Of a stretch of 38,979 nt of DNA, positions 1 to 16,543 are shown piece by piece. The notes beneath the pieces are model-generated. The model did not search any database, was not told where the DNA came from, and saw nothing but the letters and a program-made list of their open reading frames with translations. Source of the stretch: Kayfunavirus LM33P1; sequence record OZ035813.1, one strand, 5' to 3'. How positions within the stretch are numbered: position 1 is the first letter of the stretch; every line of letters begins with the position of its first letter. A program made the translations under genes and the position numbers.

Positions 1-29
1 TACAAGACGATTAAGAGCGGAGGTAAGAC

Positions 30-293
30 ATGACGCAGATGGACTTAGAGAAGTTCCTGTTAATGCTGGACACAGAACGTGCTAGACTAATGCTGCAAGA
101 CCTGCGGGATGACACTAAGCGTTCACCTCAGCTCTACAACGCCATTGAGAAACTGCTTGCTCGACACAACTTTGTGTTAAGCAAGGTGTCTGTGGACGAG
201 AAGACGCTGGCGGATATGGAGGCCTTGAACGAAGAGTACGATAAGGTGCTTTCAGCTACTGAGGATAATGACACCGGGTATGGTGTTCAATAA
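30..293 (+). CDS. small terminase subunit (T7 gp18-like)
   Basis: 87-aa ORF immediately upstream of spanin and large terminase genes; size and motifs (FLLMLDTE, RSPQLYNAIEKLL) resemble T7 gp18 as recalled; ATG at 30 overlaps the TGA that would end the holin ORF wrapping from the window end. Confidence 0.8.
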   Translation: MTQMDLEKFLLMLDTERARLMLQDLRDDTKRSPQLYNAIEKLLARHNFVLSKVSVDEKTLADMEALNEEYDKVLSATEDNDTGYGVQ

Positions 294-338
294 GTGTTAG
301 ACTCAAGGTCATCGTCAGGTGGCCTTTATGGTTAACAC
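294..338 (+). promoter_or_regulatory. RNase III-like processing hairpin (R18.5 position)
   Basis: conserved element GACTCAAGGTCAT..GTGGCCTTTATG flanked by complementary outer stem GTGTTA/TAACAC. Confidence 0.4.
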
Positions 339-389
339 TGACTAGTGGAGGCGACTCTACGTTAAATCTGATAAACCGGGAGGGCAACT

Positions 390-839
390 ATGCTCGAATT
401 TTTAAAGAGAGCGGCTCCGTGGTTACTTGCAGCAGTGATGTTTGCTGGTGGCTACCACACCGCTAACAATAAGTGGGAGGCTAAGGTCAATGCAGAATAC
501 ACCTCGAATCTTAAGGCATCGGAAGATACAAGGCTTGCTGTCCAAGCTGAAGTCAACAAAGTGTCCAAACGGTTTCAGGACGAAATGTCCTCGCTGGAAG
601 GCAGCACTGATAGGATTATTGCTGACCTTCAGTCTGACAATAAGCGGTTGCGCATCCGAGTCAAACCAACGAGTGGAACCACGCAAAGTGACGGTCGATG
701 CTTCATTGATGGTTACGCCGAACTTGACGAACGAGATGCTAAACGTCTTATCGCCATCGGAGTGAAAGGAGACAAGTGGATTAAGGCCCTTCAAGACACT
801 GTGAGAGCCTTACAGCAAGAGAAGGAGGTGACGCATTGA
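390..839 (+). CDS. i-spanin, Rz-like (T7 gp18.5-like)
   Basis: 149 aa, N-terminal hydrophobic helix ([14 protein letters not shown]), position between gene 18 and 19 as in T7; SD GGGAGGG upstream of ATG. Confidence 0.8.
490..765 (+). CDS. o-spanin, Rz1-like lipoprotein embedded in +1 frame of the i-spanin gene (T7 gp18.7-like)
   Basis: ORF fully inside 390..839 in another frame; signal-like stretch [18 protein letters not shown] with lipobox-like ISGC; start codon uncertain (ATG at 490 chosen). Confidence 0.5.
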   Translation: MQNTPRILRHRKIQGLLSKLKSTKCPNGFRTKCPRWKAALIGLLLTFSLTISGCASESNQRVEPRKVTVDASLMVTPNLTNEMLNVLSPSE

Positions 840-2599
840 GTAAAGACTTAGTGGCGCGTCAGGCGCTAATGACTGCACGTATGAAGTCAGACTTCGTGTT
901 CTTCCTGTTCGTCCTGTGGAAAGCTCTGTCGCTCCCAGTCCCGACTCGCTGTCAGATTGACATGGCGAAGAAACTATCGGCTGGGGACAACAGGCGCTTC
1001 ATCCTACAGGCGTTCCGTGGTATAGGGAAGTCCTTCATTACGTGTGCCTTCGTTGTCTGGAAGCTATGGAACAACCCAGACTTGAAGTTCATGATTGTGT
1101 CGGCCTCAAAGGAGCGAGCCGATGCTAACTCCATCTTCATCAAGCGAATCATCGACCTCATGCCTCAGCTTCAGGAACTCAAACCTAAGCAGGGACAGCG
1201 AGATGCGGTTATTAGCTTCGACGTGGGACCTGCCAAGCCAGACCACTCACCTTCGGTTAAGTCCGTTGGTATCACTGGTCAGTTGACTGGTAGTCGTGCT
1301 GACATCCTGATTGCCGATGACGTGGAGGTTCCGAACAACTCAGCGACTCAGGCTGCACGAGACCGTCTATCAGAGCTTGTGAAAGAGTTCGACGCTATCC
1401 TGAAGCCGGGAGGTACGATCATCTATCTGGGTACTCCTCAGAACGAGATGACCCTGTACCGTGAGCTGGAAGGTCGTGGGTACACCACTACTATCTGGCC
1501 CGCTCGTTATCCACGCGACAGGAAGGACTGGCAGTCTTACGGCGACCGTCTGGCTCCTATGCTTCAGGAAGAGCTGGAAGAGGACCCTGAGTCCTTCTAC
1601 TGGCGTCCGACTGATGAAGTACGCTTCGATGATACGGACCTGAAGGAACGTGAGCTGTCCTACGGTAAAGCTGGCTTCGCTCTACAGTTCATGCTTAACC
1701 CGAACCTGAGTGATGCCGAGAAGTACCCTCTTAAGCTCCGTGACCTTATCGTAGCCGACTTGGACCCAGCGTCCAGCCCAATGGTCTACCAATGGTTGCC
1801 GAACCCTCAGAACAAGCGTGAGGACGTTCCTAACGTTGGACTCATGGGTGACTCGTACCACACGTATCAGACTGTAGGTTCTGCCTTCAGCTCATACACC
1901 CAGAAGATTCTGGTCATTGACCCTAGTGGTCGTGGTAAGGATGAAACTGGATATGCGGTACTGTACCAGCTCAACGGCTACATCTTCGCTATGGAAGTTG
2001 GTGGCATGCGTGGTGGTTATGAAGACTCTACGCTGGAAGCCTTGGCTAAGATTGGTCGTAAGTGGAGGGTCAACGAATACGTCATTGAGGGTAACTTCGG
2101 TGATGGTATGTACCTTGAGTTATTCAAGCCTGTAGCTGCCCGTATCCATCCTGCTGCTGTAACTGAAGTGAAGAGTAAGGGTCAGAAAGAACTCCGCATC
2201 TGTGACGTTCTGGAGCCTATCATGGGGTCTCACAGACTTATCGTTAACGCTGCCGCTATCGTCCAAGACTACCAGTCAGCCTCTGATAAGGATGGTGTTC
2301 GTAACCCTATCTACTCTCTCTTCTACCAGATGACTCGTATCTCTCGTGAACGTGGAGCATTGGCACATGATGACCGACTTGATGCGCTGGCTATCGGTGT
2401 ACAGTTCTTCGTTGAGTCGATGGCTAAGGATGCCAACAAAGGCGAACGTGAAGTCACTGAGGAGTGGCTGGAGGAACAGATGGAGAACCCACGGAAAGGC
2501 TTCGAGTCCATCCACACTGAGTTCTGGGACAATGGGGTCCGGGTAACTCACGATACGGACGACGAGCTTGGACTAGGGTCATACGTTACGTTCCACTAG
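836..2599 (+). CDS. terminase large subunit (T7 gp19-like)
   Basis: 587 aa; strong similarity to recalled T7 gp19 ([64 protein letters not shown]); start is TTG at 836 preceded by AGGAGG, N-terminal length matches T7. Confidence 0.95.
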
Positions 2600-2609
2600 C
2601 TGAATGAAT

Positions 2610-2656
2610 AACTATAGGTGAAAGCTGCATTAATAAGCAGCTAGTAACCTATAGTT
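2610..2656 (+). repeat. imperfect inverted repeat after the terminase gene
   Basis: AACTATAGG..AGCTGC ATTAATAA GCAGCT..CCTATAGTT; central 6-bp stem with 8-nt loop and outer 9-bp arms. Confidence 0.5.
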
Positions 2657-2693
2657 ACTACCAGTCTAACATACTGTTTTACAAGGAGTTTGG

Positions 2694-2716
2694 ACTTAAC
2701 TATCACTATAGGGAAG
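2694..2716 (+). promoter_or_regulatory. phage RNAP promoter (phiOR-like, right end)
   Basis: ACTTAACTATCACTATAGGGAAG; predicted +1 at 2711. Confidence 0.75.
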
Positions 2717-2896
2717 ACCCCCGGTTACTTATAGTATTACTATAGTGAATATACATATGCAGACTTTATGCAAGACCTTAGGAGGCAGACTCCGAGTTCT
2801 TACCTAAGGCTTGCACCGATGGAAGGAGGGTGATATTAATCATAATCCCTCCAATACAGATAGTCACCGACCATAGATACAGGAGGTATGTAGCAT

Positions 2897-3055
2897 ATGG
2901 CAAAGACCAAAGCTGTACTTAAAGCTCTGGCGACCAATCGAGCTACATACAGGTTTCTTACTGCTGTTCTACTTGCTGCTGGCGTTACTGCTGGAAGTCA
3001 GTGGGTCGGGTGGGTCGAGACTCTCGTATGTTCTCTGGTCTCTCAGTGTAATTAA
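2897..3055 (+). CDS. small hydrophobic protein (gene 19.5 position)
   Basis: 52-codon ORF with AGGAGG 10 nt upstream, downstream of a phage promoter; below the length cutoff of the supplied ORF track. Confidence 0.45.
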   Translation: MAKTKAVLKALATNRATYRFLTAVLLAAGVTAGSQWVGWVETLVCSLVSQCN

Positions 3056-3164
3056 CGCAATCATGATAACAATCAACGAAAGGAGGTAGGGATGGACGAG
3101 GAGTCTTATGGGTCGTTCTCTGACGAAGATTATCAGACGGAGTGGGAATACGCGCATTGAAGAC

Positions 3165-3205
3165 CTAAGGTCAGTTCATAGCTGACGCTACTCTACTGAC
3201 CTTAG
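3165..3205 (+). repeat. 10-bp perfect inverted repeat (CTAAGGTCAG / CTGACCTTAG) near the right genome end
   Basis: arms separated by 21 nt; non-coding context. Confidence 0.5.
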
Positions 3206-3368
3206 CTACTGTAGTCAAGGACTTTAGGTAACACCTTAAGAGAAGCTCACTTAGGGTCATCCTACTTATTGGTCTATCCTAGTGTCGCCTGACCTACGGT
3301 CCTTGACCTACAGTGGCTGTGGCCTACAGTAGTGACGATGAGTTTTGGACAAAAAGTTTGAGACCACA

Positions 3369-3580
3369 TCTCACACTTCAAGAACCTCAAGTCTCCCCAT
3401 AGGCCCTCTTTCAGTCCAGACCAAAGGCCCTACCCGTTACTGCTCCTTGCAGTCACAGCCAGTCTATCATAAGGTTGGACAGATGGTCAAGACTTAAGGT
3501 CAACGATAGGCTGAGGCTATGGCTTAGGGAAGGACGATAGGTTGGGACTATTGGTCTTCTTTGAGTCTCTATCTGTATAA
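3369..3580 (+). repeat. predicted direct terminal repeat / genome left end (collapsed single copy)
   Basis: begins TCTCACA like the T7 left end and ends GAGTCTCTATCTGTATAACC resembling the end of the T7 terminal repeat; boundaries approximate. Confidence 0.35.
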
Positions 3581-3700
3581 CCATAAGTCACAACCATAGG
3601 TCACAGCCTACCTCTCACAACCATAAGTCATAACCTACAGTCTCACTAACCTACAGTCTCAACCATAAGACACCAACACCTACAGTCATAGACCTACAGT
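3581..3700 (+). repeat. array of short direct repeats (CCATAAGTCA / CCTACAGTC) next to the predicted terminal repeat
   Basis: at least 9 copies of the 8-10 bp motifs within 120 bp; analogous to the CCTAAAG heptamers at the T7 left end. Confidence 0.6.
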
Positions 3701-3790
3701 TAATAGACACAAGGCTATAGACTTAAGGTCTAAGACATGTTAGTCAAAGACTATATCCTCTTACACCATGGGGCCGACGATAGCTTAATC

Positions 3791-3840
3791 AATATTATTT
3801 CAAATTACCTATTGACTATAGGTCCAGACTATGGCCTAAT
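3791..3840 (+). promoter_or_regulatory. candidate host sigma70 early promoter (A1-like) with AT-rich upstream element
   Basis: AT-rich AATATTATTTCAAATTACCT then TTGACT at 3812-3817; -10 weak (CCTAAT at 17-bp spacing or TAATAG). Confidence 0.35.
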
Positions 3841-3951
3841 AGCTTCCGTCAACACGACACGGCAACAACCGGATAGTGAAGACGCCGGTCCGGTCCGGTT
3901 AAGTAGTCAGCCTGTAAGACATACGAACAACAGGCAACCGACAGAAAGTAG

Positions 3952-3981
3952 TTGACAGGCAGTAACGACTTAAAGTAATAT
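3952..3981 (+). promoter_or_regulatory. host sigma70 early promoter (T7 A3-like)
   Basis: TTGACA, 18-bp spacer, TAATAT; downstream GTACCACAT..GAAAC..GCTCTTTAACAATCTGG resembles the T7 A3 leader. Confidence 0.6.
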
Positions 3982-4095
3982 GTACCACATCGAAACAACG
4001 GTGATGACCAACACTGAATGGTCTACCTGAAGTCCTCTGACTGAAGGGAATGCTCTTTAACAATCTGGATAAACTCTTAATGTGCGCCGATAGCG

Positions 4096-4151
4096 ACTAA
4101 CTACAGGGCCTTTGAGTCTACATCTGAAGGCCCTGACTGATAGTCACTAAC
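4096..4151 (+). promoter_or_regulatory. early-region repeated hairpin element (copy 1)
   Basis: contains GGCCCTGACTGATAGTCACTAAC and a 7-bp stem CAGGGCC/GGCCCTG; lies just upstream of the first early ORF. Confidence 0.4.
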
Positions 4152-4158
4152 TTAAAGG

Positions 4159-4413
4159 ATGGACACTATGAAACACTTAAGCACAATCACTAATCGCAAT
4201 GAAGTATTCGTGAACACTAAAGGTTATGCGTGGATTCAGCTTAAAGAGATGACAGGAGCGCGTCACCGTGTGGTAGTGCGCAAGGTATCAAGCAAGCAGT
4301 TCAGCAACTACAGCGTCGATACTGTGCGTATAGACAACGAGACATACCTGATAGACTCGCAGATAACCGTGAGTCCTACAGTGGGCGTCTCAGCTCCTTA
4401 TTTCGCTAACTGA
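4159..4413 (+). CDS. hypothetical early protein, first gene after the host promoters
   Basis: 84-aa ORF about 90 nt downstream of the T7-like leader GCTCTTTAACAATCTGG; no recognisable motif; alternative ATG at 4168. Confidence 0.5.
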   Translation: MDTMKHLSTITNRNEVFVNTKGYAWIQLKEMTGARHRVVVRKVSSKQFSNYSVDTVRIDNETYLIDSQITVSPTVGVSAPYFAN

Positions 4414-4420
4414 GAGTGAT

Positions 4421-4468
4421 TAACTACAGGTCGTTAGACTGATAGCGGCCTGACTGATAGTCACTAAC
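4421..4468 (+). promoter_or_regulatory. early-region repeated hairpin element (copy 2)
   Basis: ACTACAGGTC..GGCCTGACTGATAGTCACTAAC upstream of ocr. Confidence 0.4.
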
Positions 4469-4496
4469 ACATAATTAACTTTGAGAGGATATAACT

Positions 4497-5000
4497 ATGG
4501 AACGTAATGCTAACGCATACTATGAGCTGCTGGCTGCAACCGTTGAGGCATTTATCGAGCGTATTCAGTACGACCACCTGACTCAAGATGACGACTACAG
4601 CGCTGCGCTGCATGAGGTCGTAGACGGTCAGGTTCCACACTATTACCACGAGATTTTTACGGTGATGGCTGCTGATGGTATAGACAACGAGTTCGAAGAC
4701 TCTGGGATGATACCTGAAACCAAGGACGTAACGCGTATCCTACAAGCTCGCATCTATGAGGCACTTTATAACGACGTGTCTAATAGCTTGGATGTAGTCT
4801 GGTTTGAGGATGAAGAGGCAGACGAAGAGGATGAATATTGGGTAGTTGACGCTAAAACAGGCGCAATAATTGTGCAAGCTGTAGCTCTTGAGGTCGCTAC
4901 TGCATGTGCCAAGGTCAACTATGTGATAGGTCGCCACCTTCAGGTGGAAGACATCAATGATAACGTAGTGTTTGACCCTGCTGCTGAGGACTGCGAGTGA
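4497..5000 (+). CDS. ocr: Ocr-like anti-restriction DNA-mimic protein (T7 gp0.3 homolog) with C-terminal extension
   Basis: residues 1-110 align with recalled T7 Ocr ([45 protein letters not shown] versus T7 [45 protein letters not shown]); acidic patch, then about 50 extra residues absent from T7 Ocr. Confidence 0.8.
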   Translation: [167 protein letters not shown]

Positions 5001-5149
5001 TGGTAACTTATGGCCTCTGCCAGCACCACGTCACTAACGCCCGGCTTATGGTCAAGACCGGGCAGTTAGACCACGATTGGGCTATGCGTCTCTTGAAAGT
5101 GGTCTACAGGAGACGCAAGCGTATACACGACAGTTTACACGCTAAGTGA
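5000..5149 (+). CDS. small basic hypothetical protein
   Basis: 49-aa ORF whose ATG overlaps the ocr stop (TGATG); ends just before a repeated hairpin element. Confidence 0.35.
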   Translation: MVTYGLCQHHVTNARLMVKTGQLDHDWAMRLLKVVYRRRKRIHDSLHAK

Positions 5150-5150
5150 C

Positions 5151-5196
5151 AGACTACAGGTCATCAATGCTGGTGGCCTGACTGATAGTCATTAAC
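5151..5196 (+). promoter_or_regulatory. early-region repeated hairpin element (copy 3)
   Basis: GACTACAGGTCA..GGCCTGACTGATAGTCATTAAC upstream of ORF 5213. Confidence 0.4.
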
Positions 5197-5212
5197 AACT
5201 GAGAGGGAAGAT

Positions 5213-5440
5213 ATGAACACAATCACTGGTGCCATAACCAAAGGTTTTCGAGCAATTTTCGGTGAAACGCAAGAAGTATGCACCAATCATAAATTCGTAC
5301 TTTCTTGCGTAGCAGGTGACGAGTTTGACGGGTTCGATAAACTGGTGGTTTGCGACCATTGCGGACAAGAGGCTATCCAACACTCAAACGGTAAATTTGA
5401 ATTAATAGACGATAGCCTTACAGAAGGAGACGGCGAGTAA
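5213..5440 (+). CDS. hypothetical early protein with four-cysteine (zinc-ribbon-like) motif
   Basis: 75 aa; Cys pairs in VCTNHKFVLSC and CDHC; SD GAGAGGGAAG upstream. Confidence 0.5.
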   Translation: MNTITGAITKGFRAIFGETQEVCTNHKFVLSCVAGDEFDGFDKLVVCDHCGQEAIQHSNGKFELIDDSLTEGDGE

Positions 5441-5572
5441 CCTAAATAAACAGGAGAGAACCAAATCATAGCTTGACCATAACACTGACGTGATGGTACT
5501 GAGTGATAGACGAGAGGTCATCGACTGATAGGTGGCCTCAAAGATTACCACTTACATTGATAGGAGTTAACT

Positions 5573-5677
5573 ATGAGCACTGCAATCATCTGGACTATCT
5601 CAGGCTTCGTAGCGTGGGGAATGTTTACTCTAGTCTGCAAACTACCGGTCCTTACTCAACTGTTATGGGGCTTATGA
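5573..5677 (+). CDS. small hydrophobic early peptide
   Basis: 34-aa ORF with SD TAGGAG upstream; TGA overlaps next ATG (ATGA). Confidence 0.3.
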   Translation: MSTAIIWTISGFVAWGMFTLVCKLPVLTQLLWGL

Positions 5678-5877
5678 CTATGAGTATCGCACTATTGATA
5701 GCCATAGGCTATGGACTTATCGCCTACGTGCTGGTGAGAGACATCAACAAAGCGCGTAAAGTCTACAAATTCAAATATGTACGTCTGGGTAGCTGGACTG
5801 TACGTCAACCTAACGGACGATTCATGCGTAACTTAGCGAACGTCTGGGATATAGCAACACTTGGGAGCAAACTGTAA
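5674..5877 (+). CDS. small membrane protein (early)
   Basis: 67 aa with N-terminal TM-like helix SIALLIAIGYGLIAYVLV; translationally coupled to neighbours by ATGA overlaps. Confidence 0.4.
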   Translation: MTMSIALLIAIGYGLIAYVLVRDINKARKVYKFKYVRLGSWTVRQPNGRFMRNLANVWDIATLGSKL

Positions 5878-6203
5878 TGAACAAGTCATACGGGATTAAT
5901 CTGGTACACTCTATGGACGCAGACATGCAAATGTTAAGCCTACTGGCTACCGGGTATCGTCACGGAACGTCAAGTCACTCCGCACGTCAACAGCAGGAGC
6001 GGGACCGGGTACTGCAAGCAAGACTCCGGGCTGAGGGCCATAAGTCCGAACTAATGTGTCTGGTGTATGGTGGACGACCAATCACTGACGATGGTAAACT
6101 TTTAGTCTCAGGCTGGAAGGCGATAGACCAACGGTCAACCATCAAGCACACGACTCATGGTGACTTCAGTCATCTCCACGCTAACCCGCTGATATGCAAG
6201 TAA
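5877..6203 (+). CDS. hypothetical early protein
   Basis: 108-aa ORF at the position where T7 carries the gp0.7 kinase; no kinase motifs seen. Confidence 0.55.
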   Translation: MNKSYGINLVHSMDADMQMLSLLATGYRHGTSSHSARQQQERDRVLQARLRAEGHKSELMCLVYGGRPITDDGKLLVSGWKAIDQRSTIKHTTHGDFSHLHANPLICK

Positions 6204-6208
6204 TTCTG

Positions 6209-6231
6209 ACTTAACTATCACTATAGGACTC
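6209..6231 (+). promoter_or_regulatory. phage RNAP promoter immediately upstream of the RNAP gene
   Basis: ACTTAACTATCACTATAGGACTC; predicted +1 at 6226. Confidence 0.7.
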
Positions 6232-6300
6232 AAGGTCTAAGACTCCAAGTGAAAGACCAAAGAGACTTTAAGTGAAAGACTAATAACAAGGACTTTAAGT

Positions 6301-8982
6301 ATGAGCGTCATCTCTATTGACAAGCACGACTTCTCTGATGTGTCGAACGCCATTGAGCCGTTTAACCTACTGGCTGACCACTACGGGCAAGACATTGCAG
6401 TCAAACAGCTTCAGCTTGAGCACGAGGCATACACTGAAGGCGAGCGACGTTTCATCAAGAACCTTGAGAGACAGACTGAGCGAGGGGAACTGGCAGACAA
6501 TCAGGTCGCCAAGCCTTTGATGCAGACTCTGGTCCCTAAGATTGCGCAAGCCGTCAAGGAGTGGCATGAAGGTCCAGACGGGAAGCTGTCAACCTCTCGT
6601 CCGAGCGTAGCGTTCACCATGTTGAGCACTGAAGAGAAGGCCGTAAAGGTCCGCTCTTTGCGCATCTCCTGCGAGTCTGCTGCGGTTATCATATTGAAGG
6701 TCATACTCTCCAAGCTGGTCAAGCCTGAAGGGATACCGATTACACCGATGGCCTCAGCGATAGGTCGCACACTTGAGGACGAAATCCGCTTCGGTCGCAT
6801 CCGTGACAAGGAGAAAGAGCACTTCAAGAAGGCGATAGCTGATAACCTGAATAAGCGGGCCGGGGCGTCCTACAAGAAAGCCTACATGCAAGCGGTCGAG
6901 GCATCCATGCTGGAGCAAGGCCAACTGGAAGATGCGTGGGGGACTTGGAGTCCGACCGAGGCTGTCCACGTTGGAATCAAGATGCTGGAGATTGTCATCC
7001 AGTCCACACAACTGGTCGAGCTTAAGCGTTACGGTGCTGGCAATGCAGCGGCTGACGTTGAGATGGTCCACCTGTCAGACTTCTGGGTCAAGAAGATGGC
7101 ACAACGAGGATTCAGCCTTGCGGGTATAGCTCCAGTCTACCAGCCTTGCGTCGTTCCACCTAAGCCGTGGACTGGTGTCGTAGGCGGTGGGTACTGGGCC
7201 AAAGGACGCAGACCATTACCACTGATTCGCTTAGGGTCTAAGTCTGCGGTAGCACGCTACGAAGACGTGTATATGCCTGAAGTCTATGACGCTGTGAACA
7301 TCATTCAGAATACACCTTGGAAAGTGAACAAGAAGGTTCTGGAAGTGGTGAACATGGTCGAGAAGCTGAACAACACGCCTATTGATGACATCCCTCAGAT
7401 GGAACCGCTGAAGCCTGAGGACTATGCGGGTGAGACTGAAGAAGAACTCAAGGCATGGAAGAAGGCTGCTGCTGGTATCTATCGCCGCGAGAAGGCCAGA
7501 CAGTCACGAAGATTGTCACTGAGCTTTATCGTCAACCAAGCGAACAAGTTCTCTCAGTTCAAGGCCATCTGGTTCCCGTATAACATGGACTGGCGCGGTC
7601 GCGTCTACGCTGTGCCGATGTTCAACCCTCAGGGTAACGACATGCAAAAGGGTCTTCTGACTCTGGCAGTCGGTAAGCCTATTGGTGCTGATGGTTTCAA
7701 ATGGCTGAAGGTCCACGGTGCAAACTGCGCGGGTGTCGATAAAGTCACCTTCGAGGAGCGTATCAAGTGGGTGGAAGATAACCACGACAACATCATGGCT
7801 GCTGCCAAGGCACCGATGGATAGCATTGAGTGGTGGGGCAAGTTAGACTCTCCGTTCTGCTTCCTAGCGTTCTGCTTCGAGTATGCTGGCGTAATGCACC
7901 ACGGCTTGTCTTACTCCTGCTCGCTGCCGATAGCGTTCGATGGGTCCTGCTCTGGGATTCAGCACTTCAGCGCTATGCTTCGCGACCACATCGGTGGACA
8001 TGCAGTAAACCTGACGCCATCCGGTAAGGTCCAAGACATCTACCGCATCGTGTCTGACCGCATTGAGGAGGAGCTTAAAGTCCTACTGGTTAACGGTACG
8101 GACAACGAGATGGTAACTCACGAGGACAAGAAAACTGGTGAGATTACCGAGCGTCTCAAGCTGGGGACACGAGAGCTTGCCCGTCAGTGGCTGACCTACG
8201 GTATGTCACGAAAGGTCACTAAGCGTTCGGTCATGACTCTGGCCTACGGGTCGAAAGAGTACGGCTTCGCAGACCAAGTTTACGAGGACATCGTGATGCC
8301 AGCGATTGACTCAGGGTCTGGCGCTATGTTCACTGAACCAAGCCAAGCATCTCGCTTCATGGCTAAGATGATTTGGGAAGCTGTGAGTGTGACCGTAGTT
8401 GCTGCGGTTGACGCGATGAAATGGCTTCAGGGTGCTGCCAAGCTGCTTGCTGCTGAAGTGAAGGACAAGAAGACTGGAGAAATCCTGAAGCCTTGTCTTC
8501 CGGTACACTGGGTCACACCTGATGGTTTCCCTGTCTGGCAGGAATACCGCAAGAAGGACACCACTCGTCTGAACCTGATGTTCTTAGGGTCATTCAACCT
8601 TCAGCCTACCGTCAACAAAGGCACGAAGAAAGAGCTGGACAAGCACAAGCAGGAGTCAGGCATTAGCCCGAACTTCGTCCACTCACAAGATGGTAGCCAC
8701 CTCCGCAAGACTGTAGTCCACACGCACCGCAAATATGGCGTGATGTCATTCGCAGTGATTCACGATAGCTTCGGGACCATCCCGGCTGACGCTGAGTATC
8801 TGTTCCGTGGAGTCCGTGAGACGATGGTCGAGACCTACCGCGACAACGATGTGCTGCTTGACTTCTACGAGCAGTTTGAATACCAGCTTCACGAGAGCCA
8901 GAGAGACAAGTTGCCTGAGCTTCCGAAGAAAGGTAAACTGAATATCGAAGACATCTTGTCTTCAGACTTTGCATTCGCTTAA
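6301..8982 (+). CDS. T7-like single-subunit DNA-directed RNA polymerase (gp1)
   Basis: 893 aa; characteristic T7 RNAP sequence throughout (for example PMFNPQGNDMQKGLLTLA, HDSFGT, AFCFEYAGV, C-terminal FAFA). Confidence 0.97.
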   Translation: MSVISIDKHDFSDVSNAIEPFNLLADHYGQDIAVKQLQLEHEAYTEGERRFIKNLERQTERGELADNQVAKPLMQTLVPKIAQAVKEWHEGPDGKLSTSRPSVAFTMLSTEEKAVKVRSLRISCESAAVIILKVILSKLVKPEGIPITPMASAIGRTLEDEIRFGRIRDKEKEHFKKAIADNLNKRAGASYKKAYMQAVEASMLEQGQLEDAWGTWSPTEAVHVGIKMLEIVIQSTQLVELKRYGAGNAAADVEMVHLSDFWVKKMAQRGFSLAGIAPVYQPCVVPPKPWTGVVGGGYWAKGRRPLPLIRLGSKSAVARYEDVYMPEVYDAVNIIQNTPWKVNKKVLEVVNMVEKLNNTPIDDIPQMEPLKPEDYAGETEEELKAWKKAAAGIYRREKARQSRRLSLSFIVNQANKFSQFKAIWFPYNMDWRGRVYAVPMFNPQGNDMQKGLLTLAVGKPIGADGFKWLKVHGANCAGVDKVTFEERIKWVEDNHDNIMAAAKAPMDSIEWWGKLDSPFCFLAFCFEYAGVMHHGLSYSCSLPIAFDGSCSGIQHFSAMLRDHIGGHAVNLTPSGKVQDIYRIVSDRIEEELKVLLVNGTDNEMVTHEDKKTGEITERLKLGTRELARQWLTYGMSRKVTKRSVMTLAYGSKEYGFADQVYEDIVMPAIDSGSGAMFTEPSQASRFMAKMIWEAVSVTVVAAVDAMKWLQGAAKLLAAEVKDKKTGEILKPCLPVHWVTPDGFPVWQEYRKKDTTRLNLMFLGSFNLQPTVNKGTKKELDKHKQESGISPNFVHSQDGSHLRKTVVHTHRKYGVMSFAVIHDSFGTIPADAEYLFRGVRETMVETYRDNDVLLDFYEQFEYQLHESQRDKLPELPKKGKLNIEDILSSDFAFA

Positions 8983-8997
8983 CAACAGGAGAAGTAT

Positions 8998-9228
8998 ATG
9001 TCAATGAAACTTGTAGCACACAACAGGGTATTCAACGATGGGTCGGGACGTTGCCATGTAGAGCTGACTTATAAGGATTTAATCATTCTCCGAGACAGAT
9101 TACAGTCGGGTGTGACTGGGTGGATTCAACCTAACGAGTACAACCTTATAGCTTCGATTGATGAAGTTCTTAACGCGTGGATGGAAGACGAGCGCATTCA
9201 GTATCCGTCATTCCCTCTAATTAGATAA
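8998..9228 (+). CDS. hypothetical protein
   Basis: 76-aa ORF with AGGAGA SD directly after the RNAP gene. Confidence 0.5.
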   Translation: MSMKLVAHNRVFNDGSGRCHVELTYKDLIILRDRLQSGVTGWIQPNEYNLIASIDEVLNAWMEDERIQYPSFPLIR

Positions 9229-9238
9229 GGAGAGAGTT

Positions 9239-9454
9239 ATGAAATTTGCACACAAGCATACTGGCGTTAATGGTGGGACTCAAATCGTGACCGTAACAGA
9301 ACACAACGGCAAGGGTCTGGTGAAGACCACGGTCATCCCTACCGAGATGTCCAAGCAGCTTAACATCCCGTTCAAGACTCTTGTATATCTGGTCGAGTCC
9401 AGCCACGAGAAGTACCTGAAGGACGCAGTGTCCAAGCTGGAGCAGGCCAAATGA
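9239..9454 (+). CDS. hypothetical protein
   Basis: 71-aa ORF with AAGGAGAG SD. Confidence 0.5.
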   Translation: MKFAHKHTGVNGGTQIVTVTEHNGKGLVKTTVIPTEMSKQLNIPFKTLVYLVESSHEKYLKDAVSKLEQAK

Positions 9455-9529
9455 CAGACATACAGTTACTGGCCTTGTGGCTGGGAGCACTCGCAGTATT
9501 CACTTTAATCCAACGCAGAAGAGGTTAAC

Positions 9530-9552
9530 CCTAAACTATCACTATAGGATTA
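9530..9552 (+). promoter_or_regulatory. phage RNAP promoter (phi1.1-like)
   Basis: CCTAAACTATCACTATAGGATTA; +1 at 9547. Confidence 0.75.
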
Positions 9553-9595
9553 GACTCAAGGTCATGACTCAAAGTCGTGGCCTTCATGATTAACC
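9548..9595 (+). promoter_or_regulatory. RNase III-like processing hairpin (R1.1 position)
   Basis: same conserved core GACTCAAGGTCAT..GTGGCCTTCATG just downstream of promoter +1. Confidence 0.4.
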
Positions 9596-9625
9596 CTAAA
9601 TAAACACTACTGGAGATTTAACCGT

Positions 9626-9805
9626 ATGTATCAGAACACTATCAACTTCGAGCGCATCCGTGAACGTCAGCAGACTGAAGGTTACATCCCTAAGGGCCGC
9701 AAGCTGAACAAGACTAAACGTGGAGGAGGTATCAAAGGTGCTTTCCGTAACGCTGAAGGTAAAGACTCTATGGTTAACCAAGAGAAATACTTCGTAGGAG
9801 CATAA
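9626..9805 (+). CDS. gp1.1-like small basic protein
   Basis: 59-aa ORF downstream of a phage promoter; KGRKLNKTKR motif matches recalled T7 gp1.1. Confidence 0.6.
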   Translation: MYQNTINFERIRERQQTEGYIPKGRKLNKTKRGGGIKGAFRNAEGKDSMVNQEKYFVGA

Positions 9806-9809
9806 CCAA

Positions 9810-10073
9810 ATGGGCAGACTTTATAGTGGCAACCTCAACGATTTCAAAGCAGCGTGTCACAGGCTTTATCAGTTAGACTTCGCTGTCATATCTCAGGAGT
9901 TTCAAGACTATACGTCACGCCAAGAGTGTATGAAACTCAGGGTGGAGGACCGAGCTGGTAACATCTTCGCGCTTGAGACCTTCGCACACTACGATGAAGA
10001 CGTGCTGTATAATACCGCAACCGACTACCTCAACGGTCTCGCTGACCATCTCGACACATGGAGCAAAGAATAA
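9810..10073 (+). CDS. gp1.2-like protein (dGTPase inhibitor family)
   Basis: 87 aa starting MGRLYSGNL..FKAA, as in T7 gp1.2. Confidence 0.8.
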   Translation: MGRLYSGNLNDFKAACHRLYQLDFAVISQEFQDYTSRQECMKLRVEDRAGNIFALETFAHYDEDVLYNTATDYLNGLADHLDTWSKE

Positions 10074-11161
10074 TGACAACTATCAAAACTAACCCTCACC
10101 GCGCTGTAGATTACTCTGAGTCTGGAATTAAGAAGGCACTGGAAGCAGCCGGGTCTCTGGAAGCTGAAGTGAAGTACGATGGTGTGCGCCTGAACCTCCT
10201 GGTCCTGCGTGAAGGTGAGACCTACTGGCTTAGCCGCGAGTCGAAACCTCTACCAGCCTTGGAGTGGATGAACTCTGAGTTAGGTAATGCGTGGACCCAA
10301 GCTGACTGGCGATGGTTCCTGCGTCAATCCGGCTACGAAGGTGTGGGCATGATGATTGATGGCGAGGTCATGGTCAAAGGTGTAGACTTCAACACCTCCT
10401 CAGGTCTCATCCGAACGAAGTGGCTCAAGCCTAACAACGAGGAGTTCGCTGAATACTATTCGCCGGCGACTGGTGGAAAGAAGCTCCCGTTCTGGGGATC
10501 CCGGTCACGACTTCAGGTTGTGGTCTACGGTGTCATCGACATGACAACCATTGCTGACCCGAAAGCCGAAGGTCCTATCCATAGCGTCACACGCCTGAAG
10601 GCCGAAGCTATCGTCCCTCTCCTCCAGAAATACTTCCCGGAAATCGACTGGGTTCTGTCTGAGTCACACACGGTCTATGACCTTGAGTCTCTCAACTCCC
10701 TGTACGAAGAGAAGCGTCTGGAAGGACACGAGGGTCTGGTAGTCAAGGACCCACTTGGTAAATACAAGCGCGGCAAGAAGTCAGGCATGTGGAAAATGAA
10801 GCCGGAGGACACCATTGATGGGACCGTGTGTGGACTCGTGTGGGGGACTCCTGGTAAGGCTAACGAAGGTAAGATCATCGGCTTTGAGGTTCTACTGGAG
10901 GATGGCATGGTGGTCAACGCCTGCGGTCTGTCTGAAGAACAGAAGGACGGGTTTACGGCTAAGGTCAAGGAGGACACGCTTGCTGCGGTTGGCATCTTTG
11001 CGCCGTACGGCATTGGTGGTAACGAACCTTGCTTCGATAACCCATACGAAGGCTGGCAGTGTGAAGTCCTCTTCATGGAGAGGTTCCCTGATGGCTCCCT
11101 TCGTCACCCCAGCTTCAAGTGCTGGCGTGGAACCGAAGACAACCCAACGGTGAAGTCATGA
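10073..11161 (+). CDS. ATP-dependent DNA ligase (gp1.3)
   Basis: KYDGVR adenylation motif, EGHEGLVVKDP, SLRHPSF; start taken at ATG 10073 overlapping the gp1.2 stop (TAATG) to match the T7 N-terminus MxxIKTNP. Confidence 0.9.
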   Translation: MTTIKTNPHRAVDYSESGIKKALEAAGSLEAEVKYDGVRLNLLVLREGETYWLSRESKPLPALEWMNSELGNAWTQADWRWFLRQSGYEGVGMMIDGEVMVKGVDFNTSSGLIRTKWLKPNNEEFAEYYSPATGGKKLPFWGSRSRLQVVVYGVIDMTTIADPKAEGPIHSVTRLKAEAIVPLLQKYFPEIDWVLSESHTVYDLESLNSLYEEKRLEGHEGLVVKDPLGKYKRGKKSGMWKMKPEDTIDGTVCGLVWGTPGKANEGKIIGFEVLLEDGMVVNACGLSEEQKDGFTAKVKEDTLAAVGIFAPYGIGGNEPCFDNPYEGWQCEVLFMERFPDGSLRHPSFKCWRGTEDNPTVKS

Positions 11162-14569: not shown

Positions 14570-16273
<1,704 letters not shown>

Positions 16274-16315: not shown

Positions 16316-16480
16316 GTGTTAAAGAAACTTAAAGCTCGCTACCATCGGTTCATGTACAAATGGTGGAGCGACGAAGCAACCTGCCTGTCGAACATTCTGG
16401 GAGACCAGCGGTTCAACTCTGAGGCATGGAAGAAAGCTAACCGGAAGTTCATGTATCACTTCTTGCGTACAGACTTCTAG
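16316..16480 (+). CDS. hypothetical small protein
   Basis: 54-codon ORF with GTG start 6 nt after GGAGGA, between the primase-helicase and DNA polymerase genes. Confidence 0.3.
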   Translation: MLKKLKARYHRFMYKWWSDEATCLSNILGDQRFNSEAWKKANRKFMYHFLRTDF

Positions 16481-16526
16481 GTCTAGACTCAAGGTCATTC
16501 ACATAGAGTGGCCTTTATGATTAGAC
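16481..16526 (+). promoter_or_regulatory. RNase III-like processing hairpin upstream of the DNA polymerase gene
   Basis: same conserved core with outer stem GTCTA/TAGAC. Confidence 0.4.
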
Positions 16527-16543
16527 TAAACGGAGGATTAACC

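Follow-up and report, generated by a model that had tools for sequence, protein, structure and literature searches.

What is the function of a 22-bp sequence that stands, almost unchanged, in front of three consecutive early genes of a T7-like phage? The question is raised by LM33_P1, a T7 relative of the K1F group (Autographiviridae, Studiervirinae, Kayfunavirus) with a genome of 38,979 bp (LT594300 / NC_031937). The stretch analyzed here (OZ035813.1; all 38,979 nucleotides are called the window, and coordinates refer to it) is a circular permutation of that record, in which window position equals record position + 3376. In a megablast search, positions 3900-5800 matched Escherichia phage LM33_P1 at 100%. 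A first-pass annotation of the window had pointed to the repeat, GGCC(C)TGACTGATAGTCAYTAAC, and had read it as an early mRNA processing or stability element of the R0.3/R0.5 type or, alternatively, as a repeated operator for a regulatory protein. The analysis indicates that the repeat is very probably the 3' strand of intercistronic RNA hairpins that are RNase III processing sites of the T7 group.

The repeat and its RNA hairpins

The occurrence of a near-identical 22-bp repeat before three early genes was borne out by a window-wide motif search, in which the 18-nucleotide (nt) core TGACTGATAGTCAYTAAC was found in three exact copies, all on the + strand, whereas dinucleotide shuffles gave an expectation of 0.10 with up to three mismatches allowed and never attained the observed number; a repeat search of the window recovered the same family (D6). 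The copies lie at 4129-4151 (GGCCCTGACTGATAGTCACTAAC), 4447-4468 (GGCCTGACTGATAGTCACTAAC) and 5175-5196 (GGCCTGACTGATAGTCATTAAC), so that the three locations first proposed were right and their exact positions differed by 1-2 nt. Each copy is preceded by one 5' partner, ACTACAGG(G/T)C (that is, ACTACAGGKC), found as had been described at 4100-4109, 4423-4432 and 5153-5162. The ends of the repeats are 4-15 nt from a Shine-Dalgarno sequence and 17-29 nt from the start codons at 4168 (or 4159), 4497 and 5213; they are therefore upstream of ribosome-binding sites, as had been claimed, at distances slightly shorter than the 10-50 nt initially given. The exact 18-mer is rare, being present in only 18 stretches of a viral collection of 2.9 million contigs, with one to three copies in each and mostly in contigs of about 39-40 kb.

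The 22-nt repeat constitutes the whole 3' half of a hairpin: GGCCUG forms the base of the upper stem, ACU/G/A the internal loop region and UAGUCAYUA one strand of the lower stem. Four such hairpins, all on the + strand and 51-59 nt in length, are designated here c1 to c4. Hairpin c1 (4091-4149) is the first site of this type after the early promoter, precedes the gene at 4159/4168-4413 and has repeat copy 1 as its 3' half; c2 (4414-4466) starts directly after the stop codon at 4411-4413, precedes an ocr-like gene (4497-5000) and ends in copy 2; c3 (5144-5194) overlaps the end of the open reading frame (ORF) 4997-5149, precedes the gene 5213-5440 and ends in copy 3; and c4 (5501-5553) precedes a gene starting at 5573, with GGCCUCAAAGAUUACCACUU as its 3' arm. 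The sites begin at a stop codon or immediately behind it, and 17-41 nt separate them from the next start codon. A fourth, degenerate copy of the repeat had been suggested near 5520, and a fourth homologous hairpin, c4, does exist there; nevertheless, what corresponds to the repeat by homology is GGCCTCAAAGATTACCACTTAC (5534-5555), and the string that was probably seen, CGACTGATAGG (about 5522-5532; GACTGATAGG at about 5523), belongs to the apical loop and upper stem of c4. Part of the repeat, GACTGATAG, also recurs at 4436-4444 and 5523-5531, in the apical loop/upper-stem regions of c2 and c4, and gives c2 an imperfect 15-nt tandem (GACTGATAGCGGCCT / GACTGATAGTCACTA). Since this internal recurrence is not kept in orthologues, it was probably left behind by a duplication or by slippage.

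Structure prediction (RNAfold) confirmed the imperfect hairpin proposed for the repeat and its partner, with minimum free energies (MFE) of -24.8, -23.3, -19.3 and -18.1 kcal/mol for c1 to c4 and z-scores, calculated as MFE against shuffled sequences, of -5.2, -4.6, -2.9 and -3.2 respectively. Hairpins c1, c2 and c4 share the topology '(((((.(..((((((((((loop))))))))))...).)))))', which comprises in order a lower stem, a 1-nt bulge (an A/A mismatch), a single C:G pair, a 2x3 internal loop, an upper stem of about 10 bp and the apical loop. In c3 a larger 6x7 internal loop replaces the C:G pair and the mismatch, under an upper stem formed by CAGGUCAUC/GGUGGCCUG. On the antisense strand the z-scores of c2, c3 and c4 are only -0.8, -0.2 and -1.3, compared to -4.6, -2.9 and -3.2 in sense; three of the four elements thus fold only as sense-strand RNA, because their helices contain G·U pairs.

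Relationship to the RNase III sites of T7 and T3

A covariance model was built solely from seven T7 and seven T3 RNase III sites, with no sequence of the window included. The T3 sites were the stem_loop features annotated as 'RNase III recognition site' in NC_003298. The T7 RefSeq and V01146 records list no RNase III features; the T7 coordinates were those that we take to be given by Dunn & Studier 1983, and a site was kept only where a canonical hairpin was present. The coordinate that we assume for T7 R6.5 showed no hairpin and was left out, as were, for their other shapes, T7 R3.8 and R13 and T3 R3.8, R6.5 and R13. The resulting consensus has 19 pairs, 11 of which show compensatory changes among the 14 sites.

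A scan of the whole window on both strands with filters off returned exactly seven significant matches, all on the + strand. Hairpins c1 to c4 were among them, scoring 32.4 (E = 1e-5), 40.6 (E = 8e-8), 39.1 (E = 2e-7) and 33.1 bits (E = 6e-6), whereas the next-best match in the window reached 12.6 bits (E = 1.3). The remaining three are canonical T7-type RNase III sites that read ACUCAAGGUCAU...GUGGCCUU(U/C)AUG(A/G)UUA, with GUGGCCUUUAUGAUUA on the 3' side, and are unannotated in the public record. The first of these, ACUCAAGGUCAU...GUGGCCUUUAUGGUUA at 292-340 (+ strand; 57.1 bits, E = 4e-12), is located between an ORF ending at 293 and the ORF 390-839, which, judging from the layout of the T3 record and from their translations, would be homologues of genes 18 and 18.5, so that the site would occupy the R18.5 position. 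The second, at 9545-9598 (+ strand; 47.3 bits), is in the R1.1 position and directly follows a phage promoter at 9525-9549 (promoter family D1). The third, at 16478-16529 (+ strand; 49.1 bits), is found between a 566-amino acid (aa) ORF (14573-16273) and a 735-aa ORF starting at 16508; from their size and gene order we take these to be the primase/helicase (gene 4) and the DNA polymerase (gene 5), and the site would then correspond to the R4.7 position as in T3. An Rfam scan of 3300-11000 gave no match at E<=1, and to our knowledge Rfam has no family for the T7 RNase III sites.

Conservation in related phages

The comparison set comprised 80 viral contigs (832 kb) encoding relatives of the gene 1 RNA polymerase (58-99% identity) together with their flanks. 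At E<=0.01 the model found 217 matches in these 80 loci; all of them were on the gene strand, and the opposite strand had none. The 83 matches from the window and 22 Kayfunavirus loci were then considered for covariation, in an alignment that was fitted to the model and in which pair counts are accordingly biased upward: 94% of the cells are in standard pairs compared to 21-48% when the partners are slid, 12 of the 19 pairs show double-sided changes, compensatory cells number 204 compared to 71±7 in shuffles, and the covariation score is 0.519 compared to 0.211. Among orthologous sites, CAGG...CCUG switches with AAGA...UCUU and GACUA/UAGUC with GAUUA/UAAUC. In some relatives the c1 orthologues read ...ACTCAAGAGAC...GTCTCTTTCTGATAATCAC, with a T7-like A:U closing pair and the lower stem GAUUA/UAAUC, and therefore the Kayfunavirus variant and the T7 form interconvert by compensatory changes. 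Over the 80 loci the 3' strand of the internal loop is mostly UAU or CAU, with AAA and AAU types elsewhere, and the variant CCUG|ACU|GAU was found in Kayfunavirus loci only.

The distance between the arms and the loops vary, and whole hairpins span 51-83 nt across sites and orthologues. Five loci (L016, L018, L025, L026 and L027) carry a c1 orthologue with an apical insertion of about 25 nt, CCGCGAGACGGGCTTGACTTGAGCGAC, which lengthens it to 81-82 nt (e.g., L026:835-916) and leaves the arms unchanged. The 3' arm is less variable than the 5' arm (mean column entropy of 0.25 and 0.52 bits respectively), partly because its G residues can pair with either C or U of the 5' arm. Additionally, Kayfunavirus loci (e.g., L008:851-2275) show two to four model matches upstream of gene 1, and their set of small early genes varies too.

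Proposed processing of the early transcript

The four hairpins are located some 0.7-2.2 kb from the left end of the genome, in a classical early region of the T7 type. The top promoter match within 3300-11000 is a strong sigma-70 promoter-like site at 3952-3981 on the + strand (TTGACA, an 18-nt spacing and TAATAT; 10 of 12 positions), and a terminator scan gave no + strand terminator-like site between this promoter and 10636. With a near-consensus sigma-70 promoter upstream and no predicted terminator before 10636, the hairpins should belong to the early transcript of the host RNA polymerase, which this promoter should drive through all four of them.

The following model is proposed. The host RNA polymerase would start at one or more early promoters, such as the one at 3952-3981, and produce a polycistronic early transcript in which the four hairpins would form, each with an upper stem of about 10 bp (CAGGKC.../...GGCCUG, or GAGGUC/GGCCUC in c4) and a lower stem of 6-9 bp (GAGUGAYUA/UAGUCAYUA). 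Between the two stems, c1, c2 and c4 would present an asymmetric internal loop (UA or AG on the 5' side, ACU or AAA on the 3' side), a single C:G pair and an A/A mismatch. RNase III binds about two helical turns, and a 3' hairpin that is retained after cleavage shields the upstream RNA from 3' exonucleases. Escherichia coli RNase III would thus bind a quasi-continuous helix of about 20 bp, and the internal loop would limit cutting to one strand, the 3' one, where the sequence aligns with the T7 cut CCUUUAU^GAU. The predicted cuts are U4138^G4139 (c1), U4455^G4456 (c2), U5183^G5184 (c3) and A5542^G5543 (c4). They would release an RNA of 4139-4455 for an 84-aa protein, one of 4456-5183 for the ocr-like gene and a 50-aa ORF, one of 5184-5542 for a 75-aa protein, and the RNA from 5543 onward. 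Each upstream product would end in a protective 3' hairpin, with possible effects on stability and translation, and each downstream product would have pGAUAGUCAYUAAC as its 5' end, with the start codon about 30-40 nt further on. According to Pertzev & Nicholson 2006 (PMC1540722), internal loops confine cleavage by RNase III to one phosphodiester and the protective 3' hairpin stays.

The proposal of early mRNA processing or stability elements of the R0.3/R0.5 type is therefore upheld by the hairpin topology, the match to an independently built model, the resemblance of the arms to R0.3 and R0.5, the covariation and the restriction to the gene strand, from which we infer that the early mRNA is transcribed through these sites and cut in them. 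On the other hand, several points weigh against it. The lower stem of c3 is weaker, with 6 bp and a large internal loop, and its z-score is only -2.9; the pair counts of the covariation analysis carry the upward bias already mentioned; and the cuts were placed by means of a T7 cut position that presumably is the one in Dunn & Studier 1983. A literature search found no paper on RNase III in Kayfunavirus, K1F or LM33_P1, nor mapped transcript ends. Furthermore, most T7 sites have A:U as the pair that closes their upper stem, where the early sites have C:G (c4 has G:C), and by analogy with proximal-box substitutions, which according to PMC1540722 can lower the binding or cleavage by RNase III, the reactivity of the early sites could be reduced by this pair.

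Possible recombination at the repeats and other explanations

The alternative that survives best regards the repeats primarily as recombination linkers, that is, homologies of 22 bp (about 50 bp in the wider sense) that mediate the gain, loss and exchange of early-gene cassettes between co-infecting Kayfunaviruses, with copies kept near-identical by recombination or gene conversion and not by the needs of RNase III. We regard this as possible though somewhat doubtful as the primary role, and it is compatible with the same elements being RNase III sites. In its favor, repeat copies 1 and 2 delimit a cassette at 4152-4468 (+ strand) that contains a leader, the gene 4159-4413 and the 5' arm, loop and repeat of c2. 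This segment is missing in L011, L013, L019, L021 and L027, where c1 is directly followed by the ocr leader, and the junction of the indel falls inside the 22-bp repeat. The gene 5213-5440 is likewise missing in L009, L011, L012, L014 and L019, which have a single c4-type site there; L008 has an extra cassette and, where the corresponding c1-c2 part of the window contains two repeat copies, contains three; and the gene that comes after the c4 site and its ribosome-binding site, both conserved, is not the same in every phage. BLAST homology breakpoints between LM33_P1 and 22 relatives point in the same direction, given that 70 of the 114 fall within ±25 nt of the four sites (25% of the interval), although the loci are related and not independent and intergenic location is a confounder of the count. 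A linker role also agrees with the low variability of the 3' arm and with the report that T3 and T7 can recombine accurately within 8 bp of homology (PMC3276506).

However, intergenic breakpoints are expected for any viable gain or loss of a gene, and the sites fill the intergenic regions; breakpoints from related loci are not independent; and the low variability of the 3' arm is partly accounted for by the pairing of its G residues with C or U. Moreover, recombination explains neither the hairpin structure nor the covariation nor the homology with T7, and it would be at most a secondary consequence. It is plausible that early-gene cassettes recombine at the repeats, at the least as an incidental effect. 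A fuller version, in which the RNase III hairpin, the leader and the ribosome-binding site form a portable linker, 'site-leader-gene' cassettes are swapped within the 22-50-bp repeats and the identity of the 3' arms is partly a product of recombination, is rather unlikely as a whole and is put forward tentatively. The cassette boundaries found in the repeats hint at how early accessory genes are shuffled, and the sites are of use to phage engineering as natural insertion/deletion junctions.

A second alternative keeps the hairpins and their ligand and questions the cut: RNase III or another double-stranded RNA-binding factor would bind them without efficient cleavage, so that they would serve as stabilizers or translational regulators with the closing pair as an antideterminant. 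The early sites do differ from the canonical sites at 292, 9545 and 16478 both at the closing pair and in the internal loop (ACU/AAA compared to UAU/CAU), and PMC1540722 describes proximal-box substitutions that reduce binding and GC/CG pairs next to the scissile bond that can uncouple binding from cleavage. Nonetheless, the CAGG...CCUG closing pair is also that of T7 and T3 R1. Dunn and Studier are said to have found, in 1983, that T7 R1 is processed in vivo. We consider binding without cleavage improbable and processing by RNase III the better explanation.

The operator for a phage or host regulator of early genes, raised together with the processing sites by the first-pass annotation, fared worse and is very improbable. 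Three near-identical 22-bp copies just upstream of genes would suit an operator, and the core contains TGACT-GAT-AGTCA, a small 5-3-5 inverted repeat. However, the partner of each copy (ACTACAGGKC plus the lower-stem strand) is found at a variable distance, in hairpins that range from 51 to 83 nt and in some relatives include the apical insertion of about 25 nt; conservation obeys the rules of RNA pairing, including compensatory changes and G·U wobbles, the latter being absent from duplex DNA; the transcribed strand carries all 217 members of the family in the 80 loci; and the antisense of three of the four elements does not fold. The copies are also within the transcription unit, past the early promoter, and not at promoters, and the family is continuous with the RNase III sites of T7 and T3. 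A DNA operator was rejected on the strand bias, the G·U pairs, the variable spacing of the arms and this continuity. Lastly, it is hardly conceivable that the repeats are promoters of the phage RNA polymerase or intrinsic terminators: AGTCACTAAC loosely resembles T7-group promoter cores and the elements are hairpins, but a promoter was rejected against the genome's own consensus CTAAACTATCACTATAGGR (families D1-D3), of which at least 11 copies exist, none overlapping the repeats or sharing a register with them, and a terminator was rejected because the hairpins are followed by CACUAAC with no U-tract and the scan gave no match at them and no + strand site in 3981-10636.

The early region and its surroundings

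In the permuted window the genome has its physical left end at about 3377; positions 1-3376 contain right-end genes, among them some that look like terminase genes, and a phage promoter (2689-2713). Short direct repeats are clustered at 3579-3700, between the left end and the early promoter and close to the former; there AACCATAAGTCACAACC occurs four times, interleaved with CCTACAGTC-type units. The record annotation of the early region consists of coding sequences only, namely the ocr-like anti-restriction gene and several small genes of unknown function, and neither the LM33_P1 nor the K1F record carries an annotation of RNase III sites.

All early genes considered here are on the + strand. 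The gene for the 84-aa protein (4159 or 4168-4413) lies between c1 and c2; the ocr-like gene (4497-5000; 167 aa) is downstream of c2 and is followed by the small 50-aa ORF 4997-5149, the end of which is overlapped by c3; the gene for the 75-aa protein (5213-5440) is downstream of c3, and the gene that starts at 5573 is downstream of c4. A PHROG search of the early ORFs in 4159-6203 left all of them except ocr without an assigned function and detected nothing homologous to the T7 gene 0.7 protein kinase. The gene 0.7 kinase stimulates RNase III during T7 infection. In the Ocr-like protein, the PHROG ocr profile spans residues 1-141 only of the 167. Homology of this gene with relatives breaks repeatedly at about 4818-4831 and resumes at about 4980-4999, a pattern that suggests a variable C-terminal module (4818-4999).

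At the other end of the early region, a phage-type promoter, TTCTGACTTAACTATCACTATAGGA, is found at 6204-6228, immediately in front of the gene for the phage RNA polymerase, which starts at 6301. The promoter is followed by a half-motif, GACTCAAGGTCTAAGAC (6227-6243), which is like the 5' arm of an RNase III site. The segment 6227-6290 in front of gene 1 showed no canonical 3' arm and no match to the covariance model, and thus no R1-type site. Half-motifs similar to GACTCAAGGTCTAAGAC are also present at 3491-3507 and 3720-3736.

Comparison with the T7 and T3 systems

The value of these observations is mainly one of annotation. At least seven unannotated RNase III-type signals are present in LM33_P1, K1F and relatives, and they define likely early mRNA units, including the message for the ocr anti-restriction gene, in a phage that is a therapeutic candidate. 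The understanding of T7-group biology is unchanged by the finding. Additionally, the lineage variant (a C:G closing pair and an ACU loop) represents natural variation that can help to define the tolerance of E. coli RNase III.

By the covariance model, the stem-loops annotated in T3 (NC_003298; R0.3, R0.5, R1, R1.1, R1.3, R4.7 and R18.5) belong to the same family as the sites of the window. When folded alike, T7 R0.3, R0.5 and R1.1 and T3 R0.3, R0.5 and R4.7 have a topology identical to that of c1, c2 and c4. T7 R0.3 and R0.5 also occupy the same place as c1-c4, since they are the first intercistronic sites after the early host promoters and one of them precedes the ocr/0.3 gene. The arms of T7 R0.3 (TAGCGGATAACTCAAGGG...GCCCTTTATGATATTCACTAA) parallel those of c1 (TAGCGACTAACTACAGGG...GCCCTGACTGATAGTCACTAA), and the arms of T7 R0.5 (GAGTGATAGACTCAAGGTC...GGCCTTTATGATTATCACTTTAC) parallel those of c4 (GAGTGATAGACGAGAGGTC...GGCCTCAAAGATTACCACTTAC); the 5' arm of c4, GAGTGATAGAC, is identical to that of T7 R0.5, and its 3' arm, GATTACCACTTAC, matches T7 GATTATCACTTTAC. 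By sequence, c1 is thus taken as the R0.3 equivalent and c4 as the R0.5 equivalent. As plain sequence, c3 and c4 also share AGGUCAU/GUGGCCU with T7 R1.1, including both U·G pairs.

Some differences accompany these similarities. The 3' strand of the internal loop is ACU or AAA in c1-c4 and UAU in T7 R0.3 and R0.5, which also have A:U where the upper stem of c1-c4 is closed by C:G or G:C, and the R0.3-type 3' arm is present three times (c1-c3), which gives LM33_P1 four sites upstream of gene 1. T7 and T3 R1 share with c3 exactly the same upper stem, ACAGGUCAUC...GGUGGCCUG, which is closed by a C:G pair, whereas their internal loop is the simple 2x3 type (UA/AAU) and their lower stem is another one than that of c3. 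In both phages R1, along with host promoter C, is located directly upstream of gene 1, where LM33_P1 has the phage promoter at 6204-6228. The early sites of LM33_P1 are, in this comparison, unannotated and lineage-specific sequence variants of a well-known T7-group element.

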